From: Mytilus edulis
Lineage: Eukaryota
Assembly (NCBI RefSeq): GCF_963676685.1
Contig: NC_092345.1
Coordinates: 69,130,001 to 69,194,000, forward strand
Reading direction: 5' to 3'
Length of the DNA: 64,000 nucleotides
The notes beneath the pieces were generated by a model that ran no database searches, was not told the origin of the DNA, and saw only the letters and a program-made list of their open reading frames with translations. Shown here piece after piece: positions 7,773-64,000 of this stretch. Each line of letters starts with the position of its first letter. Positions within the stretch are counted from its first letter, which is position 1. The translations under genes and the position numbers were made by a program.

Positions 7773-8033
7773 TTAGTCAGCATGGACTTTTTTACTATAC
7801 ACCTGATGAAAAACTATATGTTCCTCTATGACATGGGGGTCGACATTTGAAGAAAACACCATTTTACAAGTTGGACATATACGTTCCGATTTGCCTGGTC
7901 TACGCTGTGGTAATCCTTGTAAATAATCAGAGTTTATTCCAAAATAAGGTCGTAGTTGCTTTGTTATGGCCTCCTGTTTTTGTGTAGCCGCTCCTGTTGC
8001 TCCCATAGGTCTGATTTCTTGGATTGGTCCGTT
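7773..8033 (-). CDS. CALCOCO-like last coding exon (UBZ-type C2H2 zinc finger)
   Basis: ICPTCKMVFSSNVDPHVIEEHIVFH followed by a stop. AATAAA on the minus strand at ~7714-7719. Confidence 0.88.
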   Translation of the reverse strand, partial: NGPIQEIRPMGATGAATQKQEAITKQLRPYFGINSDYLQGLPQRRPGKSERICPTCKMVFSSNVDPHVIEEHIVFHQVYSKKVHAD

Positions 8034-26018: not shown

Positions 26019-26208
26019 ATCTAAGGAATGAATCTGAAAAGAAATCAGATATATTGTTTTATACTTGTTAGTTTTTTTTCCTTCTTTGTAATGAGTGTCA
26101 CTTTAGTTATACAAACTAATAAAATAAAAGATGATATAGATTTACTTATTATCGAAAAGCAAATCATGTATTTTTTTTCTAAAAGTGAACGAGTTTTATT
26201 AACAGTAA

Positions 26209-27460
26209 AAACAAGGACAGCAGTGGAGTGGCACCTCTTAAAGCAACAGATGGCCTTACATATTCAGAACCAACGGCAAAAGCGAACATCCTGAACAACC
26301 AATTTTCATCGGTATTTAATTCCAACGAACCAGAAGACAACATCAAACCAATGGGTAAACAGAAGTTCCCGAATATGTTTAACATTAACATCACAGAACC
26401 AGGAGTATTAAAACTACTACAAGGCCTTAAAATCCACAAAGCTACTGGGCCAGATGGATTGTCAGCTAGACTGTTGAAGTTCGTAGGCTCTGAAATAGCA
26501 CCAGTCTTCACAGTCTTTTTCCAGGCATCCATTAACCAAGGAGCGATCCCAAAGGAATGGAAGAAGGCAGACGTAGTTCCTATATTTAAGAAAGGTGCTA
26601 AGAACCGCCCTGAAAACTACAGACCTGTCTCGCTCACATCCATCACCTGTAAAATGCTGGAGCATATAATCACGAGCAGCATAATGAAACACCTAGAGAA
26701 ACACACCATACTAACAGACGCACAGCATGGCTTCCGTAAACACAGATCCTGTGAATCTCAACTTATAATCACTATCCAGGATCTAGCCAAAACAGTCGAT
26801 AACACCGGACAAACAGATGTCATCCTCCTGGACTTCTCCAAGGCTTTCGACAAGGTTCCTCATAAGCGACTTATGCATTAGCTACATCACTACGGAATAC
26901 GGGGTAGTCTCCATAGCTGGATTGAAGACTTTCTCAACGAAAGAACACAACATGTCGTTCTCGAAAACGGTAAATCCAATACTGCACCTGTCCAATCAGG
27001 AGTTCCTCAGGGCAGTGTCCTTGGACCCATCCTTTTTCTACTTTACATTAACGACCTACCAGATTACACAGTCAACAAATCATCAGTTAGACTCTTTGCC
27101 GATGACTGCGTATTGTACAGGGAAATAAAAAACACCAAAGATGCAGAACTACTTCAACAAGATCTGGAAACCCTACAAGAATGGGAGAATGATTGGCTCA
27201 TGGAATTTCATCCCAAAAAGTGCCAAGTCATTCACATTACCAACAAGAGGAAACCAATCAGACAGCCATATATCATCCATGGTCACGTCTTAGAGGAAGT
27301 AGAATGTGCAAAATATCTGGGGGCCAACATCCACCACAAACTAAACTGGACTACTCACATAGACCAAGTAGTAAGAAAAGCCAACAACACCAGGGCTTTT
27401 CTACAGAGAAATATATCACAATGCCCACGAAAGACCAAGGAACTCTGCTACAAGTTTGAG
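26209..27460 (+). mobile_element. non-LTR retrotransposon (CR1-like clade) reverse transcriptase fragment, truncated at both ends, one nonsense codon
   Basis: KATGPDG, VVPIFKKG, NYRPVSLTS, QHGFR, LDFSKAFDKVPH, GVPQGSVLGP, FADD, KYLG. TAG at 26879-26881 with the same frame continuing afterwards. Confidence 0.92.
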
Positions 27461-28036
27461 TTAACAGTAAGTTGATATTTTGATAACCGTATTTCTTTGA
27501 TTTTGTATGACCGATATCTAAATAAAACTGTTCTAACAAAAGTCAGTGGAATTCCATTTTATTTTCCGTGTATAGTGAGTTATTCAAGGTTAAACAAAGT
27601 AGTAAATTGAACTTTTTTGTTCGTTAGGTTATCCATGTACAGAAATTGGAAACAAAATTACACAACTTTTTAGCAACCATCATATGTTTATCTTTGTTCA
27701 TGTTGTTAGTTGTCATTTGTACTGCCATAAGGGTTATTGACTATTAAACTACTTTTGAGACATACTAACTGATTTAACTGACTATATATTACACGCTTAG
27801 TCAAATAACAATTTTGTTCACAATAAGATACGCAAGAGATTTGACAGGGTTTGAAAAATGACACTGCAAAAGTACATTTATATTATTTGCCTGCTTATCC
27901 AAAATTGGCAGGGAGAACTGAAGAACATATAAAAAACAAACATTTCCTTATTGCTACATGTTAGAATGACAATTTTACTGAGATTTATGAAGAAAGAAAC
28001 GAAGAAAATTCTTCTCTGTACTAAACTCCATCTTAC

Positions 28037-32051: not shown

Positions 32052-32291
32052 ATGTCTCTATATAACTTGTTCCAATTGCGAGATGCTATGAATTTCGCAC
32101 GTCTTCTGGCCCTAGGCGTATACTTAATTGCTGTGTGTTCAGGTGCCCCATCAGATTCTTCAGATGACGAAAAACAAGCTAAATTATGGCTAGTGGAGTA
32201 TAATAAAAGGGCATCTGAAATTTATTACCGTGACTCTGTTGCAGCTTGGAATTGGAATACCAATATAACTGACTACAACCAAAATGTATCT
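32052..32291 (+). CDS. ACE: ACE exon 1 (signal peptide, start of domain 1); alternative start ATG at 32088
   Basis: [19 protein letters not shown] hydrophobic leader; [13 protein letters not shown]; GTAAGT donor. Confidence 0.92.
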
Positions 32292-33648: not shown

Positions 33649-36600
33649 CGAATACTTTTAGTTTTCGCACTCTAACTTTAGTAAAAGTGAATAGAAATCT
33701 ATGAAATTTTAACATAAGGTTTATGACCACAAAAGCAAGGTTGGGATTGATTTTGGGAGTTTTGGTCCCAACAGTTTAGGAATTAGGGGCCAAAAAGGGC
33801 CCAAATAAGCATTTTCTTGGTTTTCGCACTATAACTTTAGTTTAAGTAAATAGAAATCTTTGAAATTTTGACACAAGGTTTATGACCACAAAAGAAAGGT
33901 TGGGATTGATTTTGGGAGTTTTGGTTCCAACAGTTTAAGTATTAGGGGCCAAAAAAGGGCCAAAATAAGCATTATTCTTGGTTTTCGCACAATAACTTTA
34001 GTATAAGTTAATAGAAATCAATGAAATTTAAACACAAGGTCTATGACCACAAAAGGAAGATTGGGATTGATTTTGGGAGTTGAGGTCCAAACAGTTTAGG
34101 AATAAGGGGCCAAAAAGGGGCCCAAATAAGCATTTTTCTTGGTTTTCGCACCATAACTTTAGTATAAGTAAATAGAAATCTATGAAATTTAAACACAAGG
34201 TTTATAACCATAAAAGGAAGGTTGGGATTGATTTTGGGAGTTTTGGTCCCAACAGTTTAGGAATAAGGGGCCCAAAGGGTTCAACATTAAACTTTGTTTG
34301 ATTTAATCAAAAATTGAATAATTGGGGTTCTTTGATATGCTGAATCTAACTGTGTATGTAGATTCTTAATTTTTGGTCCCGTTTTCAAAGTGGTCTACAT
34401 TAAGGTCCAAAGGGTCCAAAATGAAACTTAGTTTGATTTTAACAAAAATTGAATCCTTGGGGTTCTTTGATATGCTGAATCTAAAAATGTACTTAGATTT
34501 TTAATTATTGGCCCAGTTTTCAAGTTGGTCCAAATCGGGGTCCAGAATTTAACTTTGTTTGATTTCATCAAAAATTGAATAATTGGGGTTCTTTGATATG
34601 CCAAATCTAACTGTGTATGTAGATTCTTAATTTTTGGTCCCGTTTTCAAATTGGTCTACATTAAAGTCCAAAGGGTCCAAAATTAAACTAAGTTTGATTT
34701 TTACAAAAATTTAATTCTTGGGCTTCTTTGATATGCTGAATCTGAACATGTACTTTGATTTTTTATTATGGGCCCAGTTTTCAAGTTGGTCCAAATCAGG
34801 ATCCAAAATTATTATATTAAGTATTGTGCAATAGCAAGAAATTTTCAATTGCACAGTATTCAGCAATAGCAAGAAATCTTCAATTGCACAGTATTGTGCA
34901 ATAGCAAGAAATTTTCCATTGCATAGTATTGCGCAATAGCAAGAAATCTTCAATTGCACAGTATTGTGCAATAGCAAGTATTTTCAATTGCACAGTATTG
35001 CGCAATAGCAAGAAATATCTAATTGCACAATATTGTGCAATAGCAAGAAATTTTTTAATTGGAGTTATCTTTCTTTGTCCAGAATAGTAGTTGAATCAAC
35101 TTAAATCATTGTTTTATACAATATACAATGTATATTCACTTTTACTACCAACTGATAAATTAAAACAATCAGTGATAACAAGCACTTTTTTTACATTTTA
35201 ATATTTTATGATGTATTTAAATTAGTAGTTATTGTTGCAAACTCCATTAGAAATTTGAATTGAGATCAGTTTTGGAATAAGGGAAAGGGGGATGTGAAAA
35301 ATATATTCAACAGCATAGTGAATTGCTCAAAGGCAAAACAAAAATTTTAAGTTCATTAGAACACATTCATTCTGTGTCAGAAACCTATGCTGTGTCAACT
35401 ATTTAATCACAATCCAAATTTAGAGTTGAATCCAGCTTGAATGTTGTGTCATACTTGCCCCAACCGTTCAGGGTTCAACCTCTGCGGTCGTATAAAGCTG
35501 CGCCCTGCGGAGCATCTGGTTTAATGTTCAAAGACAGTTGATCTGTTTTATGGATGATTGTTTGTTTTAACCTCGTCTCTCAGTTTTCTCCTGGTCACGT
35601 GATGGTGTGTGACCAATTTGTTCAGTGGCGGATCCAGAACTTTTCCTAAAGGGGGGGGGGGGGGGGGGGGGGGGCACTGACTGACCTAAAAAGGGGGGGG
35701 GGCGCTCCAGTCATGCTACAATGATTCCCTATATAATCAACCAAATTTTTCCCACGAAAAGGGGGGGGGGGGCGGGGGCGGGCCCCCAGGCCCCCTGGAT
35801 CCGCCTATGTTGTTATTGCTCCAGCCATTTTAAAAAGGGGGGTTCCCAACCCAGAGTAAAAGGGGGGGGTTCCAGCTATAAGCTCCCATTCAAATGCATT
35901 GATCGGCCAAAAAAAAGGGGGGAGGTTCCAACCACCGGAACCCCCCCCCCCCTCTGGATCCGCGCCTGTGCTCCTTGACATCTGCATATCATTTGTTGTT
36001 GTTTATACGTGACATTTCATTTGCATCTATACTTTATTACAGGTTCATGTATCATTAGAATCGTCGAAGTTTACGCAGATGGCTGCAGAAAACGCGTCCA
36101 AATACCACTGGGAAGACTTTAATGATGAAGATGTGAAACGCCAGTTTAATATGGTCACGGATCTTGAAACAAGTGCTCTGGACAAATCAAAGCTAGAGAG
36201 GGTAAACATACTTTACTGATATAACGGTTACATGAATAGACTTGCACGAACTTTTCTTTTTTACCTCTAACCTTAATTCCGAAATATACATCTACGCAAT
36301 CATAATTTATGTCTCTGACTATATAAAAGATAACCCTGAGATTACTATAACCAGAGACATGTCTCTGCTATAACAGTTATTTTGTTATTAAGTCCAGATT
36401 TTTCTCATAAGGGAACAATGATCAACAATACTTTCATTAGTTTGTATCTACAAGAAATTCGTCACGGTATTATTAAGTTTTATTTAAAAATGTGTTTTTA
36501 TATGAAAAAATAGGGTTATATTCGATAGGTTAAACATTTTTTTACCAGTAATTTGCATTTGTAAAGTTTTTTTTTTTTATTCTGGCGGAAAGTTCAAACA

Positions 36601-42600: not shown

Positions 42601-45600
42601 CACATGTATGTATAGGTCCATTCTGTGTAGAACTGGATTTATACATGTAAAATATACTTTATTTAAAAGTAATCACAGAAACTGCTGAATGAACTGTCAT
42701 AATCATGTTTCAAAATTATTTAAATCTTTGGATTCTTTATTGCTAGAAGATCCTTGGTAAGTTCTGTATGCATGTCTTGTGTATGTGCTTGTGTGCTGTG
42801 GTTCATTCATTGATAAGGTATAAAATTATGCAAAACATAACATGTAGTTAGGATAAAAGATTACTTAGATCTAAGGTTTGAAAAAAAATGAAATATATAA
42901 GTAAATGTGCATAGAATTTAAACAGGATTATTCTATTTTCAGCTCAATAATGTTCAAGCAGAGTTACAGAAAATTTACAGTTCAGGAGAGGTGTGTAACA
43001 TCCCTGGCCATGGTTGCTTACAGATGGAACCAGGGCTTACAGCTCTCATGGCAAAAAGTCGTAATTATGATGAATTAGTGGCAGGATGGAAAGGATGGAG
43101 GAATGCTACTGGAAAACAGATGAAAGACCTCTACGCTGAATTTGTAGAACTAAGAAATGAAGGCGCAAAAATATCTGGACGTGAGTATATACTGTATAAA
43201 CCAACTTGACCTCGACCTCATTTCATGGATCAGTGAACTAGGTTAAGTTTTGGTGCTCAATCCCATATCTCAGATACTATAAGCATTAGGTCTAGTATAT
43301 TTGGTGTATGGAAGGACTGTAAGGTGTACATGTCCAACTGGCAGGTGTCATCTGACCTTGACCTTAGTTTAGTTTAAACATATTTAATTATAGTGGATTG
43401 GGAAACAAGTTTTGCAACTTATATTAATCCCTTTCCACTTTGCGGGTGCGAGTGCTGCCTTGTAGCGGCATTAGCCTGCTCTTTTTCGAAATCTACAAGG
43501 GTGTCTTTAACGTGCAAGAGATATGGCTCTCACTTAACACGGGTCAGCCATTTATCGTCCCCTTCTGATGGACTATCATCGTTTCCTAAAGACCATACTC
43601 GCAAATGGTGTCAAGGTAGCGCCGAAAATTCAGTCCCTGAAATTTTCATCCCAGACGGGAATCGAACCAGGAACCTTTATGTTAGTAGTCCGATGCACTA
43701 ACCACTACACCACGGCGGCTGACCTCATTTTTATGGTTCAGTGGTTATAGTCATACTTTATGCAATAGTTCTACTATATTTTTTGTATGGAATGATTGTA
43801 AGGTGTACGTGTCTAGCAGGCAGATGTCATCTGACCTTGACCTCATTTTCATGGTACAGTGGTCAAAGTTAAGTTTGCGAGTTTTGGTCTTTTTATCTAA
43901 TACTATATGCCATAGGTCAACTATATTTGGTGTATGGAAATATTTTATGATCAATATGTCAGTCGCGCAAGTTTTATTTGACCTTGACCTCATTTTCACG
44001 GTTCATTGCTCAGTGTTAAGTTTTTGTGTTTTGGTGGATTTTTCTTAAACTATAAGGTGAACTATATTTGTTGTATTGAAACATTGTTAGTTGTGCATGT
44101 CTGCCTGGCATGGTTTATCTGACCTTGACCTCATATTCATGGTTCATTGGTCTTTGTTTAAGTTATCTTGGTTAATGTTAAGCTTATGTGCCAGTTGTAA
44201 TAAAGCTTTATATTTAGGACTATCAACACAATATCAATGATAAGTAAAGAAGGCAAGATATTTCAGCATGTGCACTCTTGTTTAAAGTTTGTCTAATGCA
44301 ATGTATGAATCAGAGAGAGAAAAATCATTGGTTTTCTGTTGCCTATTTTAATTTGTTTATTAGTTTGGTTACATATTTAACTGATAAAAATGCTAGCTAG
44401 GTGTTATGCACCTGTCACATACGTAGAGATCACAAAGGTTTAACACTGTCTGTTTGTTTGTTTTCCTTTATCCATTTTTTTTTGTCTCAACCAAATATTA
44501 TGAAACTTATCCACAATGCTTATTACCATTGAACTCAGATCAAGTTTGAATTTGGTTTGCTTTACTTTCACCATTCTCTAGTTATGTCCCTTTATTATGG
44601 AAAAAGTGCTTAATTTGCTGTTTCTGCACTCTTTCTTTGCTTAATATCCTCAATAGAATGTTATGAAACTTACACACAATACTTTGATTTAGAACTTGAC
44701 ATATTATATAGATAAATTATTTATCAACAGGATACAACGACACTGCAGACAGCTGGATATCATCATATGAGTCAGACACTTTTGAAACAGACCTGGTAGA
44801 ACTGTTGGTCCAGTTACAGCCATTGTATAATGAACTACACACATATGTTAGGTCCAAGTTACAAGAGGTCTATAGAGATCATAAGTTCCCAGCAACAGGA
44901 CACATTCCTGCACATTTATTAGGTAAGAAGCTTGATTTTAATAGTAGGGATTAAAGGAGATTTTAGGTATAAATAGAGGAGACAGCAACCCAACAAAACG
45001 AAAACACAATACAACATCTTAAAGTTAGCATGCAGTTTTCACAGTAAAAAGTGTTAAAACAAAATCACTAATAGTCTAAAGGAATATTTGATTATTTTGA
45101 TGTCCCTTCTGTCAATAGAGGGGACATTAAGTGTTACCCTGTCCGTCCATACATTCAAGATTTTGTTTCCGATCAAGTTCTAATTTGGGGTGTTTCTGAC
45201 GCTTCTACTGTCCTTGAGTTATGCCCTTTTATGTATGGAAAAATACCGCATTTTTGGTTTCCATTCTCTAACTTTAGTTTAACTCAACCAAGTGTAAGAA
45301 AAATTATGCATAATGCTTATGCCTTCACAATATGGACGGTATGCCTCTTTATAACATGGGGGCATCATCTATGTCCATAGACACATTCTCCATTTATTTA
45401 GTCTTGAAAATTTTAAATTTGGCATATAGAAAGGCAATACATGTACAATGCAGAATCTGGTTTCTATGAGTTAAACTCTAGATAAAATATTTAGAAAGCT
45501 TTGAAAATTGAAAAATTTGGTTGGTATATTGGGGTTTTAAATTGGTGGTCTGACACCTCAAAGTCATTTTTAATGAAAACAGGATAATCAAAGAGAATTC

Positions 45601-48600
45601 CTGATAAACGAACAGAGTTTTACACATATTCATTTGATAGAAAGAGAAACATCAAAATTTGAAACATAAATTTTCCATTTCAGGGAACATGTGGTCCCAA
45701 ACATGGGACAATATACTTGATATTGTGCAGCCATTTAAAAATAAAACATCAGTGGATGTAACATCTACTTTAAAGGAACAGGTAGGTAAACAATTAAATT
45801 AAGGTTGGGTCATAAAGGGGGTATATGTCAGTCAAATAAAATAACCAGAAAAATAATGATTCTGAAAGAAGAAAGAAAGTATAATTTCTTCAGTGCCTCT
45901 GAGGCAAACTGGTTGAAATATTTCATTTACTGTATATGGATACATAGACTTTGTTTTAAAAGGAAATCCTTTATTTTATCAAAATTTTCTGAAATGTACT
46001 GCCATTGAAATATTGCGTTCCTATACTCTTAAATTGTTGACATCTTGCAATTATGGAGTTACATTAACTATGACATCTTTGTATTATAATTCCTCAACTG
46101 CACTGTGGGACAAGGGTGAAAGAATAAACTGTGATAAAAGAACAATTAAACAAACATAGAAAAAATATAGGATTGATTGGTATCTGAAAGAAATTCAATT
46201 CAAATCAATTTACAACTTTTATGGCAAAGTTTATTAAACAAAAAAAGGAACACATGGACAATGTAACAAAATACACTTAGTTGTCATGCTCCATGATTCT
46301 GTGTTAATTGTTTATCAATGTCACTAACTTTGGCACAAAAAATCAGAAAGTTAATTAGCAGGCAAAGTTGTGAATCAACCATCAAAGAAGTTAATTTCCT
46401 TTGTAAATGGAAATCTACTCAAGTATTTTAATCCTTAGTACCTCACATCGAATGGAACAATACTGGGGATTTTTTTATTCACTGGAATTTTGTGGATTCA
46501 GGGAAGATTAGATTTTTTGTGGATATTTGGCTAAGTGCTTTTGCAAAGTGTTGCATACAAGCCAATAGGAAGTTGTACCTTGTTTAACATTTAAATACCA
46601 TATATATCTAGCAAATGCAAGAAAATGGTAACCCAAGAGTAATAATGAATGCACAATATTTAAAAAAAAATTGAATATAATTACAGAATTATACAGTACA
46701 CAGGATGTTTAAAACTGCAGAAGACTTCTTTGTGTCTCTGGGATTAAAGTCGATGCCAGAAACATTTTGGAACAACTCAATGTTTGAAAGGCCATCAGAT
46801 AGAAAAGTTGTTTGTCATGCTTCAGCCTGGGATTTCAGCAATGGAAAGGACTTCAGGTAAGTTCATTAAGGTCATCATAACTTGTCATGCAACTGTTAAA
46901 CTCAATGTCTGTCAGAGTTCTTTTAAAAGTCATGTGAAGTTAACAAGTTGGAGAATATAATTTACCATCCTAGATCTCTTGAGAATCATGAAGGGTTCAT
47001 ATATGCCAAATTGTTGCTATTTTAAGAAATTTTCCTTTGATCTTGCTGACTGATATTTTCCTTTCTCAGCGTAGTCTCATGTGATATGAATAATTATTGC
47101 TAGAAACTAAGGAGGCACTTGGTGTTGTCAATGAAATTGATAACGTCATCATAGGTAAAATAGTGATAAACAGATTTACATTGGTCATCTCAACTCAATT
47201 GCTTTTCTCACTGGCTGTACCAGCTCAAGCGAGAAAATCAATCTCCTTGAATTATTCAACAATAATCTATATTTATGGGGAGTTTATGTTTGAAAAATGT
47301 GCTGTTATCTTCTTTGTTGTAAAAAAATGATACAAAAATTATCAGCTGATAACTGACAAACAGGTAATGGAAAAACCAAATTTTGGAAAAGCAAAAATAA
47401 ATAAAAAACAATGTTTTAGATCTATTATAGTCATGATAGTTAATTTATGAGGATTCAGTAATTGTTTGTAAGATGCTAAAGAATGACATAAACAGTCTTT
47501 TTATTTGATTGTTTATCTACCCAAATGCAGATGGACTTTCTGGGTCCTCTTGAATTGAATACTTTTCTTGACTAATTATTATATAGGGACTTCTATTGGT
47601 AATTGATAATAACCAAAGTCAGCATTTAATTGATGAGTTTTCTTCAGAGTTAAGATGTGCCCTGATATAACTATGAAAGAGCTTGTGGTTATTCACCATG
47701 AATTGGGACATATTGTTTATTACATGCAGTACAGCCATCAACCCATTGGGTACAGAGGTGGTGCCAATCCTGGTAGGAAACACATGCACACATAGTCAAT
47801 GAATAATAATTTCTTATCAAGCATCACCTGAAAGTATCATAAATAATATACCCAGAGCAAAGAAGAATTTTACGAGATTTTTTTTTTTATTTCAAATGAA
47901 AATTTTATAAAATGACTTTGTTAACATGGTTGATGTTATTGGTCCTTTGTAGGATTGTTCATATCTTTTTTTTTACTGGTATATCTTATTTATTTAAGAT
48001 CAAGAGATTCAAAGTTCAGCTAGCTGAGTTTAAAAGTGAATTTAAAGAAAAATGGATAATTTTTCGTTAAAATCATATCATTTTAAAAGTGTTCTTTCAT
48101 TTATGGACTTTCAGTTGGTAGAACATAGATCATTGTATAAATGCACTTCATTTAAAAAATAGTTTTGTATACAGTATATTTTATTATTTCTAACACTTGC
48201 AACAAGTAATTATATAAGTTATAGTTTCTTAGTTGTGCATGTGTTTCTGTATTGGCACTGCATGTCATAAGTTTGCATGAAGCTGTGATATATATCATGT
48301 CATTAAAAATATACTTGCAACTACGGTGGCTTAAATAGTTTAATTTATTCATTAAAATGTTTACAGCCAATTGCATTGAGTGTGAAGGTTAAAGTCACAT
48401 CTTTGGTTAGCTTGCCTGCTAGCCGAACCATGAAGTCATTATTAGGTAAGGTATACTACCCTCCTTCGAAGTAGCCTAGTCCTATAGACAGATAGATTGG
48501 TTAACTGTCGCCTGTTGGACTAGTTTACTCTTAACGGAGGGTAGTTTTCCTAACCTAATAATGACTTCACAGTTCAGCTAGCAGGCAAGTTAACCAAAGA

Positions 48601-51600
48601 TATTACCTTTACCTACTCACTCAATGCAATCGGCTGTGATATGAAAATAAGGAGATGTAATCAACTATAGGTCACCATATACCACTTCACCAATTAGCAA
48701 TATCCATACAATATAGAAAGCTATAAAAGGTACAGACATGACAAGATATAAAAAATAAAATGACTGCATCATTTATGCTAAAGCAATAGAGCGAAAACAA
48801 AATGACAGACAGAAACTGATGACAACCACTGGAATCAGGTTCCTGTCTTGAGGTAGAATTACATAATAAATATAGAGGGGTTTATCGTGTTTATCAGCAT
48901 AAGGGTGTGTCATCATGTTTTGATAAGGTTTGTACATGAATAGACAAACTTCCATAGTTTGCTTTTGAATTCATCAAAAGAAGATGTTGATGAAAAAGGA
49001 AAATTGCAATCTGAGAGAATTTTGATTGAGTTTGATTATTTCTTTCAAAATTGGCTAATATGATTAAATAGAGTGGGTTCAGAAAACTTAAATGTCCTGA
49101 TATGCAATATGCTTCATAGATGGTTCTTTCTCCTACGAAAGCGGTGTTTGTGGTAGTGAATCAGTCTTTTTATAAATGATTCTTCTCAAAAATAACAAAA
49201 TTCCTTTTCAGGATCAAGATGTGTACATCAGTCAACATGGCGGACTTGATCACTATCCATCACGAAATGGGACATATACAGTACTACCTACAATATAAAG
49301 ATAAACCATTACTATTCAAAGGGGGTGCTAATCCTGGTAGGTACTTAGTTACCATGGTAAAATTCTGTTCTGAGGCTTTAAAACAAAGGTGGCATATTTA
49401 GATGGGTTGCAAGCAAAGACTAGTGGATCTAATGATATTTAGGGCCTTGTTCCCATGGAAACACAGACAGTTGTATTTTTTATTGGATGATTCTTCTTCT
49501 TACTTTTTTCTGTTAGTAAAAGACCATTGTTAAAAAGGAGATTAGAGTACTTAAAGAAAATTTGAATATTATTCATGTTGAATATATTGAACTGAAATGT
49601 GGATGTGCAGTAAAGGCATGTTTTTGTGCTTTTAAAATGATAAATATTTTGCATGCACCTGTTCTTGTATTGTAAAGTGTTTGTAACTTAATATCTTGTT
49701 TTTATGATACTTGACACTAATTTCTTATTTTGATTTTTTTATGATAGAAATAAACAATAACGAACATAAGAATATAAACATTTAGACAGGAAAAATTTGT
49801 TTATTTAGTTATTCCAAGTTGGTTTTTCATTATTAATGCAATGAAAGGCAAGTTATTTGTATGTCCCTTGGGGGCGAAGAGGGCATTTCGTTTTACCTTT
49901 GTCGTTAGTTTGTACAACTGTATGTCCCAAAATTAATTTTTATTCTCTCACTTAAGTTTGCCTCAACCAAATGTTATGAAACTTATATACACTGTTTATT
50001 ACCACCAAACACAAATCAAGTTTGAATTTAGGTGGCATTACTTTCACCATTCTTGAGTTAAGTCCCTTTATAAAAGGAAAGTTGTCAAATTTGCAGTATT
50101 CTTAATCTAACGTAATTTTGCCTAAACTTAATGTTATAAAACTTATACACACAATGCTTATTACTACCAAACAATGTCGGATCAAGTTCGAATTATGGTC
50201 GGGTCACTTTAGCTTTTCTTGAGTTATGTCCCTTTGTTTATTAAAGATTGCAGAGTTTGCTGTATGTTACAAGCGAGGACATCAGTGTTCCATGTACCAG
50301 TCGTTGACCAATCATATGTCTTTAAATATACAATTCTCTGTTTTAAGGTTTCCATGAGGCTGTAGGAGATGTGATGGCCTTGTCTGTGGCCACACCTAAA
50401 CATCTTAACAAGATTGGTTTATTGAATAAAGTGGAGAATGATAAGGGTAAATACACAAGATCATTTTATTGTAGAACTATTTGATATCTATCAATGTCCA
50501 TGGATATCACTAATTAACCATGAAAAACTTTATTATTGTGTTAACTATAGACGGGTTTATCTACAACTGACCTAGAAAACATGGGCGCATCCATTAACCT
50601 CTCACGTGACCGGTCAGCCATTACAACCGTGAAAAATAAAGCACGTGCATTGATCAAAACATTATCGATTTTCTGTTTACATTTGTATTTCTTTCATTTA
50701 TTAATTTATTTTACTATGGATAGCGCCGAAAGTTATAAAAAAGGTGGAGGCAATTCTTGTGCAGTTAATAGTTGTACAAATAATCGTAGAAAACTCCAGA
50801 TGTGGAAAAAATCAATGTGTGAATTACACAACGAGTTGCACAATGACTGTCCTTGTTTGATCCCATACAAGTTTCATTTGATGCCTTCTGACGAATTAAC
50901 AAAACTCGAGTGGATAAAAGCTATTAACAGAAAAACTTTGCCAAAACATGTTTATGTATGTTCCGAACATTTTCTTGATGGTGCGCCGTCAAAAAGAAAT
51001 CCTTGTCCAAAATTAAAACTTGGTTATGACAGTAAAGTTACACCCGGCAGACGCAAGTTAGCACGTTGTGAAACGGCTGTGAAAAAACTAAAATTAAGTT
51101 ATGAGAATGATTCTGGTGACGATAATGTGTCTGACTCTACTGGTTTTGAAGCTCTGGACATTTCTGTAAATAATGACAATGAAACGTATCCCGAGGCTAC
51201 ATGTAGTTTTAATGTAGCTTATCCTGAAACTGTAACTAAATCTACCCAGTATGATGAGACGGACTTTCTTATTTATGACGACCATCCCTATGCTGAAAAA
51301 TGGTCAGACATGCAGACAACATCAACTCAGACAAAACTTTTATTGACAGAGGAGAAAGGTGTTCAGAGTAAAATAGAAGGGGGGACCATGTCAGCAAATA
51401 CGAACATTGTGACTGACAGTGACGCCTTATTATATACTGGTGTAACCAAGGAAGTTTTTTTTACTTTAGTGGAATTACTACGTGCAGACAATCAATTCAA
51501 TTTTCAACTAGATATTGCAGATCAGCTTTTACTTGTACTGATGAGGTTAAAACTTCATTTGATATTTGATGATTTAGGACGTCGCTTTGGTATTTCAAAA

Positions 51601-54600
51601 AGTTTGGCATGTAAATTATTTAATTCTTGGATGCCAGTTCTTGCTGAACAACTTAAAGGCTTGGTTGTTTGGCTTCCAAGAGAAACAATTCGAGCTTGTA
51701 TTCCCGAATCTTTTCGTGAAAATTATCCTCGTACAACTGTGATAATTGATTGTGCTGAGACATTTATACAAAGACCAACAAATCTTAAGAGTAGGTCAGA
51801 GACTTATAGTAACTACAAGTCACATAATACTGCAAAATATCTTGTTGGCATTGCACCTCATGGACATATAATGTTTATATCTCGGGCTTTTGGAGGTAGG
51901 GCAAGTGATAAATTCATAGTAGAAAAAAGTGGCTTTTGTCAGTATCTTTTGCCAGGAGACGAGGTGATGGCAGATAGAGGTTTCACAATTGATGATTTAC
52001 TTTTCCCACTCAGAGTCAAACTGAATATTCCAGCCTTTACAAAATGTCAACCACAACTTAGTAATGAGGATTTAACAACAACCAGGCGTATAGCAAGAGT
52101 AAGAATTCATGTGGAGCGTGCGATTCGTAGACTTAAAGTTTTCAAAATTCTAAGTAGTACTGTTCCAGTGTCCTCCTTGAAAAACTTTGATGACATTCTT
52201 CTTGTATGTTCAGCCCTTGTGAACTTAAGATCAGACTTAATAAGAGAACCTGATGAATTTGCTGAAATTTAAGTTCTTTATTCAGATAGTTTATTTTGAC
52301 TTGGTCTCATGTGTACAATTTTGTTAATAACCTAACACCTTATAGTTCAATTGATATTTGCCACTGGACATTAAAAAACAATCAATCATCTTTATGTGTC
52401 ATACCAGTCGGATACATGTATACATTTATATATACAAATGTAGGCATAATATTTACTAAACTATATATTGCATGAACATGATGAATGAGTTTCTCTTTCA
52501 ATAAATATATATATATATATATATATAAAGTTAAAAAAGGGGAGGCCAAAAGCATGGTTCATGTATGCTTTCTCTGGATCAATCTTTGTGAACTATTTGT
52601 GCACACATACACATTTATGTATCAGCACCGGCTTCTTTCACCACACAACATGTAGCTTTAAGTAAAATTATTTTTCAAATATGCTTTTCGGGGGGGGGGG
52701 GGGGCTCATTATTGAAGACTGTTTATCTAGGTTACATACATTTGTACATGTATATTTGTTAACATTGTTGTTTTGCTTTTTTTGTTGATACTTATAATTG
52801 AAGTTGTCTTATTGGCAATCACACCACACCTGTACATAAGGGGGGCTCATTGTTGAAGACTGGTGACATAAATTTGTACATGTATATTAGTTAACATTGT
52901 TGTTTTGCTTTTATTGTTGATACTTATTAAGTTGTCTTATTGGCAATCACACCTGTACATATGCATGTACATGCACTACAACTGATTACAGTAAAAAAAA
53001 ATTAAAAATAAAACATAATTTTATTCTTCTTTACATTTGTTTGTCACTGTTTAATGATTCAAATGTACATACATAAATCGGTTCTTATTGACTCAAATGT
53101 ATCCAATTTTATTCTGTTTTATGTTTATATTTGCCATATTTTAAAAAAGGAAGTGTCACTACTTAAAATGAACATGTGAAAGGTTTAACCTAAGTTAAAT
53201 TAAACGAAAGAATAGAAATATCTTGATCAGCTTGTGCAATTTTAATTACTTCATAAAATTTCTAAATATTCTACTTAGTACAAGACGATCATTGTCAATC
53301 TCATCGACTATTCTGTTCAGCATTTTATTAGAATAGAACGTCCTTAATCTGCGAACTAGTTGCTGAATATAATCTTCATCAAAAGCTATATCTATAAGAA
53401 TGTTATCATCTGGACTTCTCCAAATAAAAATTTTAGCTTTATGTAACCCGGTACAAAACATTGTTAATTGTATTTGCATAAAGTAGGCTCTGCTCCCTTT
53501 TTTCTTCAATACATAAATCCCCTCACTATTTTTTTCTACATCATATTTTGTATTGGCAATTAGTTCGTCTAAACAATTCCATTTGTTGGCAATAGGAAAT
53601 GGGCATTTCACTTCCAGTATAGTGTCCCCATTCATTATGCCATCAGGACTAGCTGATAGCCAATTTTCTGTCAACGACACATACATCCCATGATCAGTAA
53701 CGTTATGGCCCTCAGACTGTAAATATTTTTTCGCAATAGGTTCTTGCTCATTACCATATCTTGTAAACTTATTCCCTGTAAACTTAGGGTACAAATGTTC
53801 TCTGATAAATGCAGAGCAATCTGTGGTTTCCTTTATTGGAACTTTGCTAGCACTGCTAGCTGTAAGGCGTATTTTTCTGGCATCCTTCCACAACACACTT
53901 CCACTCTGTCCTTTGGTGTTCATATGTAACTCTTGGACCTTAGCAGGAGTGAGAGAAATGTACTTATTAACGAAGTTAGAACACTTTCCGCATGAGTCTA
54001 AGGCTGTATGATCGCCATGATCTTCTTGAATTATATCCTTAGTGAACGGTTTACATGTAAAACTTTTACTTGCCGTCGTTCCTTTGATGCTGAATAAAGG
54101 AAGTAGTTTAGAACTGTTAACTGCTTCCTTAAACTCTCTATCCAATGTATACATTGGTGTATCCCGACTACCTGGTATGTTATTATCTTCGTCACTGTCC
54201 ATTACATCTTCCCCTGCTTTCGGTTTTTTAAAAATAATGTTCAATAGGGGCTTTGGTTCCACATTTCTCGTTGTTCCACGATTCCATTTTGCATTTTCAT
54301 CCGTGCATGATACACCTGTCAAGTTGTTTCGAACTGCATGTTCAATTTTCCACAAAACAGCCCCAACATGACTACATGTACAAAATGTATGGCCTTGACC
54401 AGCCATACACGAACACCACCCGTTTACTATTGAGCCATCTTCATTACAAAGTACAAATACCTCATTTGTTCTTGAGACTGTTTGAGACGATCTTACTTCT
54501 CCTTTAAACATAATTGTCTTATTATTGTTAATATAATGCGTTGTAACACCAACGTTTCCACTTTGAAAATAGTTAAAGCTTTGAAGGCTTTTAAAGTTTT

Positions 54601-56342
54601 TCATTTGTTGACCGTCAACTGCTTTTGACTCCACAAGAAAGTTGTAAATATCTCCGTACATCATATTTGGCCATACACGCATGTCGTCAATCCATGTTTT
54701 GACTTTATCAACACCCGGAGGTTTCCATTCTTTTGCTACTGATGACATTATGTTGATTTTCTTCGTTAAGATCGATTGACAATAAAGGCTTGTTTACAAA
54801 TTTTTCACGGTTGTAATGGCGGCGCTGTTTACGACGACACCTAGGAGTCGCGTCTCTAACTAAGGGGGATAATCGAAAAAACCTGTCTATATGTACATTC
54901 ACAAAATATGAGTAAAAGTAAATAAAAATCATCATTAGATACCAGGATTAAAATTTTGGATGCCTCACGCATGTTCTACATTTATAGACTCATCAGTGAT
55001 GCTTGAATCAAGAATGTTAAAGGCCAATAAAATATGAAGTTGAAAATTGACTTATTTGACTTTATAGTATTTAATGAGTTGAAAATCTAGATAAACGATT
55101 ATTTAATGTAATTGGTCTACAGTCATTACACACAAAGTTCAAACAAAAAAGCTTATAGTATGGTGATTTTGGGAGGGTGACCAGGCAGAGGAAATGGGTA
55201 GCTATTTTGTGAAATCAATTTATGTCATTTTCAATTCATAGCCTTGAAATTTCACAGAAAAGTTGCACAAATATTGAAAGATTTGTTATCATTGAATTTG
55301 ATAGTGGATTTTTTTCATATTTTCCTGTCAGTTGAACTTAGAGTCTTAGACATTTTTTAGCAAAGGACAGAACCAATTTTCAACTAAGATCTTGAAGTTT
55401 AGCACTTGCTATTATGGAATTGATTGAGTAATAAAAAAAATATATACTTGTCTTTAATACCTCCAGCTAACAAAAGATAATTTATGGTAAATCTAGATGT
55501 TATAATGAGTTCATACATTTTTCAGAATACGATACAAGTTGTGCAAAGTTTGAATAGTATTGTTTATTCCTGAGTATGATTTTAGTGTGACTTTATTACA
55601 GAGAATGTTATAAATTTTCTGATGAGCCAGGCATTAAGTAAGATAGCCTTTCTTCCTTTTGGATACTTAATGGATCAGTGGAGATGGAGTGTATTTAGAG
55701 GGGAAACTCCTAAAGACAAGTATAATACAAAATGGTGGGATTTAAGGTAAAGAAATTCAAAATGTATTTGATATTTTTGATAGTGTATGTTTTAGTATTT
55801 AGAGTTATGTGTAAATTCCTTATCCATATGGGTTTCGTAATAACCTTGTGTGGTAGATGATCAGGAACAATGATTGTCTTCCATTGATTGCAGTTTATAG
55901 AAATGAATAGAGGATAGTAAACACTCATATTTATTACTTTAACCCCCAATTTAGGTTTTAAAGAATGGTGACATGATATATGCAATATAAAGCTATAGAC
56001 CAAAAAGTAATATTAATGAAATGAAATTTGGGGTATATGGTATTGAGACAGTAACTCAAGGACAAAAATAACCATAAAACATCAAGAAGTCAAGATAAAG
56101 TCTTCAACAGTTTAAAAATTATGTCCCCTTGTATTTGAATGAAGGAAACATCACTTATTACTCGATTTATTTCACTTGACTGGGCGGAGTTTAACCGGTT
56201 CGCTCATAATAAACCAGTCCATCTGTAGATGGGTGTTTTAGTATAAACTCATCAATGAAGTGTCCAGTCATTGTTTTGTAAATTCAATTGATGACACTGA
56301 TAGGTGATTAGAAATCAGTAATAATTATACCCCACGCAACGA

Positions 56343-56378
<36 letters not shown>

Positions 56379-59300
56379 CGTCCGTCTGTCCGTCCGTCAG
56401 TCCTGTTTCTTGTCATCGCAACTCCTCTGAAACTACACAACAGAATTTCATGAAACCTTTTCAGATAATAAGGACATACTATGTAGTTGTGCATATCGAC
56501 GGGAAATTATGATTCAATTTTATTTCTAGGAGTTACGCCCCTTTGAACTTATTTGCTTCAATGTACTTCTGCAACAGTTTGTCATCTCAACTCCTCTGAA
56601 AACACACAACAGAATTTCATGAAATTTTGTAGATAATAAGGACATACTATGTAGATGTGTATATTGACAGGAAATTATTATTCAAAATTTTTTCTTATAC
56701 AATTTTTTTTTCTTATACTTATTTAATTTCTCCAATGACAATGTGCGTACGTGGGGTATGTGAGCGTGCTCACTAAGGTTCTTTAATTATAACGGCAATC
56801 ATCCTTATCACACACATCTTAAAATAGACTGTCCTTATGCAAATTAAAACATAAGCTCCGCCCGATCAGATGAAATAACATTGGTAATACAATAAGAGCA
56901 AAAAAACTCTATCAATCAATAGTTTATGTTAGAGCATCTTTTCATCTTTCTGTAAAAGGGTCTTTGCAGAACTATTGATAAGCAGTGTCCATTGCAAAAA
57001 AAACGACAATATTAGAAGTGAATACAATAATAAGAAAAACAACGCTATTCTTGCATAATTATAACTTGAAGTATTTTTTTAATGTAGATGTAAATTCCAA
57101 GGAATATCCCCTCCAGTTGAAAGAACAGAAGAAGACTTTGATCCTGGAGCAAAATATCATATTCCAGGAAATACTCCTTATATCAGGTAAAGATCATATA
57201 TATTTTGATATCATCACTGCTCATAAGTTTACACTGAAATGCAGTCAACTTTAGCGTTTGATAGTTCATTGATAACATTCTGGCATATCACAAACAAACA
57301 ACTTGTAACGTCTCATTTCATTGGCTGAAAGATTCAAATACAACAACAATGATCGTAGTGTGCATGTGAATTGACACAGGTGACTGACTTTGGAATGTAC
57401 TATGTTACTACGAACGTAAAAACAAGGATTTGACAATGTTACAATGTATAGTTTACAAATCTTTGGTCAAAAGAATTAAATAAATGTTTTGTGAATTTCA
57501 AATAGTTGTGTCGAAATATTATACCGCAGCAACATAATTATCTTGAACCGCATTATGAAAAATATATGAATAAAAATAAAATTATGTGACATGTGAATGA
57601 TGTGACGCTTTTATACGGATGATTAAGGAGGGGGGCAATAGGGGGTCCTTTAACATGTTAACAACACCTCGATTTTGGCAAAAACAGTTAACAAAAAATG
57701 CAAAAATGCTGATAACAGTTAACAAAGTGGGGGGGGGGGACAGCTAACAGCTTAAATTGATCTCAGATAACAGTTAACAACACCTTAAAGAGGCCCATAA
57801 CAAGTTAACACAAAAAAGTATTTATAATGGATTTACACAATCCTCTTTTAGTGTTTTCATGCTATAAAACGAACACACCGACAGAACGTTACACAGTAGC
57901 TAAGCGTTTGGTCATTCAGAAATTACGTATCATTTACGGAGCAAATGGTCTCCGAAATATGCATGCGTATTTAAAATGAAATACAAAATCATACATGTAA
58001 GATAAACTGAGAAACAAAATATTAAGAAACTACTGACAGGGATGACTGAATGCATGTACAAGAAGGGACCCACCTTTTTATCAATACATTTAATGAATAA
58101 ACACGCTTTTAAAAACTGATTGTTTTTATGTAACTATTTTAATACATGTATTTACAATAGATAATTACGTTTGTTTTTCAACCGAGAATAGCAACACGGT
58201 TAATAATAAAATTCATTAAGTATATCGCTTGAGTTAACAAAGTACATTACTTCCACTGTGACATGGTTTGCCATCTCCATTTTTCTTTAAACAAAGTATT
58301 GTTGGTTTATACATGTTCTTAATTTACTCAGAATTCTGGATTTTTTTTCTCAAAACTAAGTTTACTGAATCAGAAAAAAATCACACTTTTCTTAGTCGAA
58401 TACCTAAAACCTGCGAAAGATATGAAAAGGCAGGATGAGCAACTTGGCAAAAAAAAAGGCCGGATGACGATTTATCCGGACAAACTAATAAAAAAAAGGC
58501 ATGACCAAATAGACCGAAAAATAAAAAGACAGGACAGAGATTACAACTAAAAAAAGGAACAAAATGTTTTATCCAAGTCCCCCCCTCCCTTCAAAATAAA
58601 ATGGTAGATCTCTTAATTCAGAACCAAATGAGAACACAGTTGAATAATTAAATATTTCGATGTGAAACCTGTTACTAAAAAGTTTTAAAATTTTACTATT
58701 GCACAAAATTATGAATTCAATGAATTTTACATGCACATGTATAAAAGCTAGAATTGCTATTGGATAATCAAGAACACAATCATGTACGTGAATACGATGA
58801 TGGAAGGTTATAACAACCTCGACCAGCTACGTTAATACTAATCAGTCCATTCAACTTGAAGTACGCATGTTCTATTTTCGCAGGTGTGAGGTCGAAGGTT
58901 TGAATTGACCAATATAACGATCGTTCCTTTACGAGTTAATCTAATAAAGTTTGTTTGACTGATTACGTCGCAATACCTTTCGCTAAGCTTTACCACATAT
59001 GAGTGTAGTGCTAAGCAAAGGAAAGAAGAAACACATGTCTTTTTATGTTAATGTTAATATATAAAAGCAAATCGGAAAAGATTCCCTGTTCTTTTAACTT
59101 TTAAAACCTAAAGAATTTTCCAATAATTTAAAAGTTTCTGCCTTTTGACAGAGTTTTGTTTAATACTTTTGAATTCAGTAAGAGTATATTACATGTCACT
59201 ATGGTATTTACTGTTCATGCACAGTACCAGGAGTAAAATCTTATGGGCAGTTGTATTAAAGTTACATAATTTCATTTAATGTATAAAAGTCCTGGGACTG

Positions 59301-62300
59301 GCAAAACAATTAGACTGTTGTTGATAGAGAATCTCTTTACAGATACTTTGTGAGTTATGTGATACAGTTCCAGTTCCATAAAGCTTTATGTGAGGCTGCA
59401 GGACACAAAGGAGCATTACATGAGTGTGACATCTACAATTCTACAGCTGCTGGGAAACTCTTGGGGTAAGATAGAAGGAAGTCTTTGTTGTATCTGAGGG
59501 AATAAAGTTGAATAATAAATAATTCTTTGGTTAAGAAGTGCAACTCTCATTTTATCAAGCAATTTTTTTACTAATTTATGTTGGCATTTTTAAGTATTAT
59601 AGATTATTTTTCTCCCCAAATACAATTGAATGATCAATCAAAGAAAACCAAGAGAAATAGCTGCTTCAACAACCTTTTCTGGTTTGACCTCATGAGCAAC
59701 AAGGTAAATAATTTTGAAATAAAGTTTTTAAGATCAAACATGTTAAATATATATGAATAAAGAAAAGGAAGAATATGTTGGGTGATGAGATAACAACTGA
59801 GGCACTTTATTTTCTTTTTATTTATGAAAAATGATAAACATTATTTTGGAATTATTTAGAGATATGCTGAAAATGGGCCAATCAAAACCATGGCCTGAAG
59901 CTATGAAAGCCATTACAAAGCAATCTAAAATGGATGTTTCTGCAATCTTGGAATACTTTGCACCCCTTATTGAATGGTTGAAAGAACAGAACAAAGGTCA
60001 AAGATCAGGTTGGACTGATTCCTGTCCTAACCCTGTGTCTGGGAAGCTTACAGATGAGGAATCAGCATGGTTATATGTAAACCAGTACAACACAATGGTA
60101 CAAGATGTCAACGCTAAACAAGGAGAAATTGATTGGTCATATGCCACAAATATAACAGATTACAACCAAGAAGTATCGGTTCGTAGATATAGGATATGTA
60201 TATATAATTGAAACAGATGCTTTTACAATCCATTAAAATTGGAGTGTAGCGTATCAGAACATCGGATTTTAATGAGATTGATGCTTTTATTTTAGATATT
60301 TGTATTGACTTTTGTGACATGGTAATAAATTGTTACCCTGAAGGCAAGACCTCAGAATGCTTTTGCAGCAAAGACTGTTTTATTTAAAAGTTTGGATGGA
60401 TTATTATAAATCGAAAGAAGTCAAATCATACATGTTTGTTATATTTTGTCTCTATAGCCTAAAACTCTCAAATTTGTTTTATGTTCACAATATTTGTATC
60501 TTTTGATATCAAAATCACTTTATGTTTTAGGTAAACTATAGTGTGACAGTTGCGAATTTTGAAAAAGAAGCTTACAGGAATGCCAGCATGTACGATTGGA
60601 AAAACTTCAAAAATGAGACTTTAAAAAGATTATTTACAAAGATCACCGATATAGGAACTAGTGCACTGGAAGATAAGGAAAAGCTACATGATGTAAGTAC
60701 AGGTCAATTGTATTGTGATACATTGAACTATTGATTATGGTGGATATATAGGTTTTAAACAATCATTGTAATCATTGTATATGAGTTTAATGTAATTATT
60801 ATGCTCAGCTTTGGGCACTGTGATTAGCAATAAAAATTATTCTATTCTATATGAACCACCCTGTCTGTCTGTCATCTGTAGTTTGAGTTTGTGATTACAT
60901 CAGTTTAAGAAAAATTTCAAATGATATTTCAATGACATTTGGTAAGCTTATATGTTAAACGAATCTTTTTTCATGTAGATTATTTGGCCCCACTCCATCA
61001 GTAATGCATAATGATTTTTTCAGTTTAAATGTTACCTTAGCAAAGCATGTCTCTCTATCAACATTGTATTTCCTTAACCCTTACCATGCGGTGACCGTCA
61101 TATGACGGGCGTACCCAATTAACCGTTATTTGGCTCCAATGGCGTTCCATACTTTTAGAAGTCCACTTTATGATACTTATTTTAAAAGTTATGGATGTTC
61201 CATCAACCTGAGGCTATCCATATTCACGTTTCTCATGTATAAGTAGCATTTTGAGCACAAATACGGACTTGGAAAATTGAAATTGGCTAAAACTCGGTTT
61301 TCTGGAGGGGTGGGCTTCACATCTGTATCTTACACAGGAAGTTCAGAGGCATAAAACTTGCACAAATAGTGCAAACCCACGGCCATATAACTACTGATCG
61401 TTATTATAATTGAAATACGCATAGGAAACAACTACTTCCGGTTTTGGGTCCATTTGAAGTCAAAAATCGGGAAAAATCGTGAAATTCAGTATTTTTGGTC
61501 CAAATGACCTTCTGTAGACTGCTGAACCAAGATCAGATTCACTCCGACCTAACAACTGCTGGGGTCAATTCGTTAACTAGGGTCAACTCTACATGCAGGC
61601 TACAGCTGGATACCTTTACCAGCATCCCTGGGTCTTCTTGGTCAAGAGAAAGAACGAAAAATAGGCAAAATTGACACTTTTTGCACCTGATGACCCAATT
61701 TGGGGAAAATTCCCGCCCACCCACCCCCGCCTCCTCACCCCGACCACCCCACCCCGTGATCACCTATATTAGATTTAAAGGAATCAATATGCTACAGCAA
61801 CAGGGCTAAGCTCATTTGCATATAATTTGCATATTTTTGCAAATAAACGAAAATTAGACATTTTCTGAAAACAATTCAGCATGGTAAGGGTTAAGGCCCT
61901 TGGTAGTAGAAACCAATTTTTGTCCAGTTTTAGCTCAAATTTGGATGTTTTTTCATCTTATTATGGGTCAGAACGGGTCAGGAAGGCCTCCAGATACAGG
62001 GATAAGTTCAAAAACGCTTAAAAAAATATTATATTTTTTTAAGTTTGTTAACCCTTACCATGCGGTGACCGTCATATGACGGGCGTACCCAATTAACCGT
62101 TATTTGGCTCCAATGGCGTTCCATACTTTTAGAAGTCCACTTTATGAAACTTATTTTAAAAGTTATGGATGTTCCGTCAACCTGAGGCTATCCATATTCA
62201 CGTTTCTCATGTATAAGTAGCATTTTGAGCACAAATACGGACTTGGAAAATTGAAATTGGCTAAAACTCGGTTTTCTGGAGGGGTGGGCGTCACATCTGT

Positions 62301-63993: not shown

Positions 63994-64000
63994 GTTAGTA

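Follow-up and report, generated by a model that had tools for sequence, protein, structure and literature searches.

A catalytic exon that is present twice in the same gene raises the question of whether splicing can exchange the active-site helix of an enzyme and, if it can, which property of the enzyme is altered by the exchange. The gene considered here belongs to the angiotensin-converting enzyme (ACE; peptidase M2) family and lies on the + strand of a 64,000-nucleotide (nt) stretch of Mytilus edulis DNA (contig NC_092345.1, positions 69,130,001 to 69,194,000), referred to as the window and numbered from its first letter. The exon of this gene that encodes the zinc-binding HEXXH motif of the first catalytic domain occurs as two copies, designated 7a and 7b. 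The reading favoured here, with a probability of about 0.6, is that 7a and 7b form a homologous mutually exclusive pair that would replace the zinc-binding helix and retune the prime-side pocket of the active site. No report of alternative or mutually exclusive ACE exons was found in a literature search for which most subscription papers were outside coverage, and the two isoforms may already figure in genome annotations produced automatically.

Two Copies of the Zinc-Binding Exon

Exon 7a (47648..47772, + strand) and exon 7b (49212..49336, + strand) are separated by an intron of 1439 nt (47773..49211). Each is 125 nt long, bounded by AG and GT and open in the spliced frame, and the two are identical at 22 of 41 residues and at 75 of 125 nt. 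Exon 7a corresponds to residues 366-408 of testis ACE, and both copies align without gaps to residues 345-385 of the N-domain and 943-983 of the C-domain of human ACE (testis 367-407) in PDB 7q3y, an alignment that confirms the testis ACE numbering adopted in the initial annotation of this DNA. Positions 332-372 of the Pfam family Peptidase_M2 (PF01401) are matched by 7a (E 1.8e-15) and by 7b (E 1.9e-18), and exons 6 and 8, which flank the copies, also score above the family cut-off. Since both copies match this family and the HEXXH exon is the only exon of domain 1 that is doubled within the window, the duplication is not a chance resemblance. Adjacent, homologous, equal in length and phase and furnished with intact splice sites, 7a and 7b have the layout by which mutually exclusive exons are recognized.

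The shared exon 6 (46687..46856, +), which encodes C352, H353 and A354 and is placed by frame and transcript contigs, precedes 7a by an intron of 791 nt, and the shared exon 8 (50348..50446, +), placed by the same evidence, follows 7b after 1011 nt and supplies the third zinc ligand. In the M2 motif, HEXXH is followed after 23-24 residues by a glutamate that serves as a zinc ligand (PMC3235092). This motif is formed with either copy, the glutamate lying at +28 from the first histidine whichever exon is used.

Probable Use of One Copy at a Time

With 7a alone or with 7b alone, the frame of the gene stays open through exon 13, a span of 711 codons. Inclusion of both copies leads to a stop at codon 408 and omission of both to a stop at codon 357; each copy is 3n+2 nt long, and the frame is kept by single use only.

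Transcript evidence comes from four of the 24 listed runs, which were compared with positions 44700-50460. Two of these were informative, X1 from organism A at a depth of 5.4 and X12 from organism B at 4.7, while X24 had a depth of 0.3 or less on these exons and no joints, and X21 gave no matches. Contigs of both informative runs join exons 5, 6, 7b and 8 at GT..AG ends and skip 7a, with the X1 contig also joining exons 4 and 5. Because the spliced contigs of both runs carry 6-7b-8, exon 7b is the main form. No joint between 7a and 7b was found in either informative run at a depth of about 5, at which contigs drop rare forms. The two copies are probably used in a mutually exclusive manner, with 7a as a minor exon. 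A second X1 contig differs from exon 8 (50348-50438) at 9 of 92 nt and probably derives from another expressed ACE domain or paralogue. Directly after the acceptor of 7a (47646-47649) comes another AG, and splicing to it would put the exon out of frame.

Residues Exchanged Between the Copies

The initial annotation had singled out residues at which the two copies differ, and translation of the exons bears it out: positions 376, 377, 379 and 380 are K, E, V and V in 7a and A, D, I and T in 7b, position 371 is P or T, position 389 is V or Q, and positions 395-402 read SHQPIGYR or KDKPLLFK, with R402 in 7a and K402 in 7b. Y391 and G403 are present in both. The human pairs that it cited, E376/D354, V379/S357 and V380/T358, are correct (7q3y alignment; PMC7148434), and positions 376, 377, 379 and 380 do line S1' and S2' (PMC5366949 Table 2; PMC7148434). 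Contacts are made in S1' by D377 and V380, in S2' by E376 and V379 and in S1 by K368 (PMC5366949 Table 2, PMC11880972, PMC7024173), and in S2 by F391, Y394, R402, E403, G404 and P407 (PMC5366949, PMC11880972, PMC7024173); in the survey of PMC7024173, about half the structures show residue 380 in contact with a ligand. Positions 371, 389 and 395-401, which had also been listed as differing, appear in neither of the contact lists available from PMC11880972 and PMC5366949. Among subsite positions, 376, 377, 379, 380 and 402 distinguish the copies, and residues 368, 391, 403 and 404 are common to both.

The family background for these residues is a set of 172 comparison segments, restricted to those that contain C370 and end in NP, which removed most bacterial rows and left many related sequences. 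Judged from sequence, the simultaneous difference at 376, 377, 379 and 380 is not unusual in itself: of 955 ACE segment pairs that have as many differences, 187 also differ at all four. The informative change is at 380 together with 377. Residue 380 is T in 145 of the 172 segments and V in 21, and E377 is paired with V380 in seven of the eight segments that have E377. In the Dreissena polymorpha protein P0001, domain 2 is set apart from the other two domains, 1 and 3, by the same split, E377/V380 versus D377/T380. The X12 contig (organism B) carries a C-to-A difference at 49241 that gives 7b an E in place of A376, and E is the residue most often found at 376 in the family; as the difference stands in one contig with a depth below 5, it may be an error.

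How far these exchanges reproduce the difference between the two human domains can be judged from domain-swap mutants. Eight active-site residues were exchanged between the human domains in PMC7148434, and five of them fall in this exon. Only one of the five, residue 380, shows the human pair (V/T), which corresponds to the S1' exchange T358/V380. The S2 exchanges Y369/F391 and R381/E403 have no counterpart, with Y391 and G403 in both copies, and neither do D354/E376 and S357/V379, for which the copies have K/A (or K/E) at 376 and V/I at 379. The E376 of the X12 contig would place a C-domain residue on an otherwise "N-like" copy, and the shared exons form a mosaic in which T282 is C-like, T518 is N-like and D284 is neither. 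In the same study, affinity for 33RE fell 254-fold upon exchange of 391 and 403 versus 22-fold upon exchange of six prime-side residues, the values for SG6 were 474 versus 11, and the effect of the six prime-side exchanges was ascribed largely to subdomain hinging, that of 354, 357 and 358 to hinging rather than to direct contact (PMC7148434). Since residues 391 and 403, the main selectivity residues, are the same in both copies, the N/C analogy is a loose one that holds at a single residue, 380. The proposed parallel to the mammalian domains is thus upheld at 380 and fails at 376, 379, 391 and 403. The accompanying suggestion of an isoform switch keeps its support from the frame, which allows single use only, and from the skipping of 7a in transcripts, but loses the close mammalian parallel.

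Age and Constraint of Exon 7a

Silent sites are saturated between 7a and 7b, the proportions of differing silent sites (pS) and replacement sites (pN) being 0.86 and 0.29, respectively. Of 20 identical codons other than Met, 12 differ silently between the copies, and the flanks of 7a and 7b share no long repeat. Exon 7a nevertheless retains both splice sites, its exact length, the frame and all nine residues that are invariant in the family, defined as those present in at least 171 of the 172 segments. In simulations of neutral change with 20,000 runs per divergence level, the share of runs that kept the AG, the GT, the frame and the nine residues together was 0.4% at a divergence of 0.2 substitutions per site and 0.02% at 0.3. 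Because these features are intact despite saturated silent sites, a combination that is rare in neutral simulation, 7a has apparently been under selection through most of its history, although its function may recently have been lost.

Two residues of 7a are rare in the family, V389 (3 of 172 segments) and P371 (1 of 172), the latter recurring in a single record, P0133, and in none of the other 171 segments. This record, confirmed as a peptidase M2, contains a 7a-type exon that has the same apparent exon ends, is identical to 7a at 30 of 41 residues and to 7b at 19 of 41, and shares K376, E377, V379 and V380 as well as P371 with 7a. It has D391, as an ACE2 chain does. P0133 is sister to 7a in a FastTree phylogeny (Shimodaira-Hasegawa support 0.90) of 99 segments and 41 columns, in which only the tips are resolved.

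A Model for the Exchange and Its Alternatives

It is proposed that 7a and 7b arose when the catalytic exon of domain 1 was duplicated in tandem long ago, and that 7a may have been kept by purifying selection as a minor or tissue-restricted form. As the zinc ligands and the S2 residues Y391 and G403 are kept in both forms, both are predicted to be active dipeptidyl carboxypeptidases. Replacement of 7b by 7a would alter S1' (D377/T380 to E377/V380), the distal part of S2' together with the subdomain interface (376 from A or E to K, and 379 from I to V), and the residue that follows the cysteine C370 (T371 to P). The expected outcome would be a moderate shift in the preference for P1' and P2' residues of peptides and inhibitors, or in closure of the cleft, and not a switch between N- and C-domain selectivity.

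Several observations weigh against this model. Inclusion of 7a was not seen, the bin depth on this exon being 0 in four of four runs (two of them informative, at a depth of about 5), and protein searches, which also missed the product of this gene, yielded no full-length protein that contains a 7a-type segment; a protein search with exon 12 failed to retrieve that product, which makes blanks in such searches weak. Exon 7a is among the most divergent segments, only 3% of the 172 having a lower mean identity, as would fit relaxed selection, and at 0.05 substitutions per site 24% of neutral runs retain all of the features scored, as would fit a recent loss of function. The record P0133 could represent another species, or another domain or paralogue. 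Differences between the copies show no preference for subsites, affecting 5 of 9 variable positions there and 14 of 23 elsewhere (p = 1.0). In human ACE, kcat/Km for Abz-FRK(Dnp)P did not change when all six S' residues were exchanged (0.27 versus 0.26), nor did omapatrilat binding with T358V (PMC7148434).

The zero depth of 7a in the two informative runs, the failure of protein searches to yield a full-length 7a-type protein and the rarity of P371 and V389 would all be accounted for if 7a were a silent relic, a former alternative exon whose splicing-in has been lost. Such a fate seems unlikely for an exon whose AG and GT, length, frame and nine invariant residues are intact despite saturated silent sites. 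P371 is common to P0133 and so is not private decay, and a rare form would be dropped from contigs at a depth of 5. Alternatively, 7a could be a real exon that serves the level of activity, stability, cleft dynamics or, through unproductive splicing, the amount of transcript. The early stops that follow double use or skipping, the 14 of 19 differences that lie outside the listed subsites and the ascription of the 354/357/358 effect to hinging (PMC7148434) would suit a role of this kind, but it is not thought probable: the alternation of E377/V380 with D377/T380 is seen again between ACE paralogues and between domains, and residue 380 contacts ligands in about half the structures examined in PMC7024173.

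The analogy pursued in the initial annotation, taken to its full extent, would have splicing toggle the domain between a C-like form (7a) and an N-like form (7b) in parallel with the two mammalian domains. V380/T380 does match human V380/T358, and V379 of 7a matches the C-domain. A toggle of this sort is nonetheless very doubtful, given that 391 and 403 are unchanged, that 7b differs from the N-domain at 376 and 379, that the shared exons are a mosaic, that S2 exchanges dominate selectivity (PMC7148434) and that at least two domains are encoded by the gene in any case. Finally, contiguity of the region rests on the assembly, and one of the copies could in principle be an assembly artefact or a piece that strayed in from some other ACE gene or allele. 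There is very little to recommend this idea when the DNA of the copies differs by 40%, much more than that of alleles would, when a single exon is doubled in the correct place and on the correct strand, and when transcript joints confirm the order 6-7b-8; in addition, 73-92% of the sampled words of the region occur in three runs of one study, which may be the source of the assembly.

Possible Enforcement of Single Use

If 7a and 7b are mutually exclusive, as favoured above, transcripts with both copies or with neither would be expected to be removed by nonsense-mediated decay, as is usual for frameshifted messages in established splicing biology. Decay of frameshifted transcripts may be the simplest enforcement of single use, and no special steric or RNA-pairing device need be postulated because only single use keeps the frame. 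Steric exclusion was ruled out for this gene, in which the intron between the copies, at 1439 nt, is too long and the acceptor region is normal, with an AG-free zone of only 45 nt before 7b. Cassettes of the Dscam type, which are selected through pairing of docking and selector RNA elements, have strong, conserved intronic duplexes. A pairing model based on inverted repeats around 7a and the 7b acceptor (I2, I4 and I10) was unsupported, the repeats being no stronger than background: the best duplex over the 7b acceptor has -17.6 kcal/mol, nine other acceptors range from -15.2 to -25.0, and 5 of 60 shuffles were as strong. An element resembling a miniature inverted-repeat transposable element lies between the copies (48363-48637), has inverted arms of 102 nt that are 86% complementary and, judging by its high read depth, is repeated elsewhere.

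Tandem HEXXH Exons in Other Sequences

Matches to the HEXXH exon in metagenome contigs comprised 78 loci drawn from the best 80 of 558 matches. Eighteen of the 78 have AG and GT at the same exon ends as here (one further locus, L073, was left out because its upstream coding sequence runs on). One of the 18, L029, has two complete HEXXH exons (1102-1226 and 1272-1396) with an intron of 45 nt between them, short enough for steric exclusion; many of the rest do not extend far enough to show whether a second copy exists. Silent sites of the L029 copies are saturated, and 4 of 41 residues differ (V372I, F391Y, V399S and N403E). Allowing for variability within the family, four differences would be expected to take in both 391 and 403 in about 3% of cases, by a test chosen post hoc. 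Its F/Y at 391 is the human C/N pair, and by its residues L029 seems a better natural mimic of the human C/N difference in S2 than 7a/7b.

Among 150 listed proteins, P0125, P0128 and P0221 are protein calls that read through two HEXXH copies across intron-like spacers of about 80, 14 and 12 residues, respectively. Residues 391 and 403 are T/T in one copy and Y/R in the other in P0125, F/G and Y/R in P0128, and F/D and Y/S in P0221; both positions are variable in the family, and these pairs are known from protein calls only. The tandem pairs in L029 and the three proteins may share one ancient origin with 7a/7b or have arisen separately. Other repeats were not accepted as cassette pairs. In L007 (247-610) a segment made up of the exon's 3' half and the donor site recurs four more times in tandem, and P0127, P0131 and P0145 have similar partial repeats of the 3' half; all four were rejected for that reason. 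P0124 and P0126 were rejected as near-exact repeats that include upstream coding sequence.

These cases raise the tentative possibility, for which the odds are put somewhat short of even, that animal ACE genes have repeatedly turned their zinc-binding exon into an active-site splicing switch, through duplication in several lineages and alternate use of the copies. If so, this mollusc would retune the prime side (377/380) and other lineages S2 (391/403), and invertebrates would gain by splicing what vertebrates get from two domains and insects from gene families. A layer of ACE diversity would then be hidden from gene catalogues.

Structure of the Gene and Its Surroundings

The gene is intron-rich and begins at 32088, and 13 exon positions were assembled, all with AG/GT ends, which encode one complete catalytic domain (domain 1) and the start of a second ACE domain. 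Exon 1 (32088..32291) contains the start codon and a hydrophobic leader read by inspection as a signal peptide. Exons 2 (36043..36201) and 3 (42943..43180) were placed by assembly of the spliced frame, exon 4 (44731..44922) by the frame and a transcript contig, and exon 5 (45684..45781), which encodes N277, Q281, T282 and D284, by the frame, transcript contigs and alignment to human ACE. Downstream of exon 8, the spliced frame places exons 9 (55602..55746), 11 (59343..59465, 123 nt, single copy), 12 (59860..60178, end of domain 1 and start of the second domain) and 13 (60531..60692, second domain), after which the gene continues toward the end of the window. Exon 10 (57088..57186), with K511, Y512, H513, T518 and Y520, was placed by the frame and alignment to human ACE. 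All of these exons are on the + strand. The donor of exon 12 (GTTCGT, 60179-60184) is far from consensus. The intron after exon 13 is filled by a repeat with a period of about 975 nt (61000-63900), and a weak match to the next ACE exon was seen at 63903-63995.

The S2' residues Q281, K511, H513 and Y520 are the same as in human ACE in the alignment to 7q3y, which points to an ACE-type domain. ACE2 differs from ACE at 281. All four residues are in the S2' contact list of PMC11880972.

Intron 8 contains an apparently intact transposon (50551-54820) with a + strand open reading frame (50716-52272) that has THAP, HTH_Tnp_4 and DDE_Tnp_4 domains, a convergent - strand open reading frame with a YqaJ domain (about 53249-54748) and a perfect 21-nt inverted pair (50617-50637 / 54800-54820). 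We take this layout to recall that of KolobokP elements. Upstream of the ACE gene, a reverse-transcriptase-like frame broken by a stop (26189-27472) appears by inspection to be an element of the long interspersed nuclear element type. Exon-like open reading frames of another gene occupy the - strand at 7776-25900 (e.g., 25662-26102, 22485-22667, 18132-18428 and 7776-8054); by eye, this gene presumably encodes a SKICH-domain autophagy-receptor-like protein.

Significance and Comparison with Known Systems

Domain selectivity of ACE is a live question in drug design, and the contribution of the prime side is hard to isolate. The 7a/7b pair offers a natural exchange of one 41-residue catalytic segment on an identical scaffold, which would test positions 376-380 with S2 held constant, and the L029 pair offers the mirror test, in which S2 is changed and the prime side is constant. 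For molluscs, the model predicts a hidden ACE isoform, perhaps in the gonad, where oyster ACE acts. The value of the pair falls sharply if 7a is never spliced in.

Like the mutually exclusive exons described in PMC7954323 and PMC8373072, 7a and 7b are homologous, neighbouring and equal in length and phase, with variable residues near a functional site. They differ from catalogued pairs in that each copy supplies the catalytic glutamate together with two of the zinc ligands. Alternative exons that replace a metal-binding helix are uncommon among catalogued mutually exclusive exons, of which only nine events affect catalytic sites (PMC7954323). Neither ACE nor angiotensin was found in the accessible text of PMC7954323, in its six text supplements or in one supplement of PMC8373072.

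Among molluscan relatives, oyster CgACE is a dipeptidyl carboxypeptidase with a role in fertility but has a single domain, and the paper that describes it (PMC3235092) lacks the word "exon" altogether, mentions no alternative active-site exon in the text consulted and knows lophotrochozoan ACE only as a single-domain protein. Three-domain ACE-like proteins were encountered as P0001, P0002 and P0121, two of which are named as molluscan. P0001, from the bivalve Dreissena polymorpha, is the best named relative, with 54% identity to the spliced protein of the window, and P0002, from Biomphalaria glabrata, has 46-53% identity. Unlike the gene described here, P0001 and P0002 have one HEXXH segment per domain, as far as protein records tell.

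Human somatic ACE shares with this gene the gap-free cassette, the HEXXH motif and downstream glutamate, C352/C370, H353, Q281, K511, H513 and Y520, and the V/T alternation at 380/358. The two human forms come from two domains, whereas here they would come from two exons within one domain, in which 391 and 403 are constant and 376, 377 and 379 lack the N/C pairs. A comparison within Anopheles is more instructive. AnoACE2 has R376, E377, V380, Y391 and G403, where 7a has K376, E377, V380, Y391 and G403 (PMC5366949 Table 2), and the structure 6s1y, whose residues are as listed for AnoACE2, is the best single-domain match to 7a. AnoACE3 has D377 and T380, like 7b (PMC5366949). Unlike 7a and 7b, AnoACE2 and AnoACE3 are separate genes, and both have F379 (PMC5366949); individual kinetics for the two mosquito enzymes were not found in the text consulted. 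By analogy, AnoACE2 versus AnoACE3 appears to be a closer counterpart of 7a versus 7b than the human N- and C-domains are, and the two isoforms of the mussel enzyme would be expected to differ in the manner of the Anopheles pair rather than by a switch of the human N/C kind.

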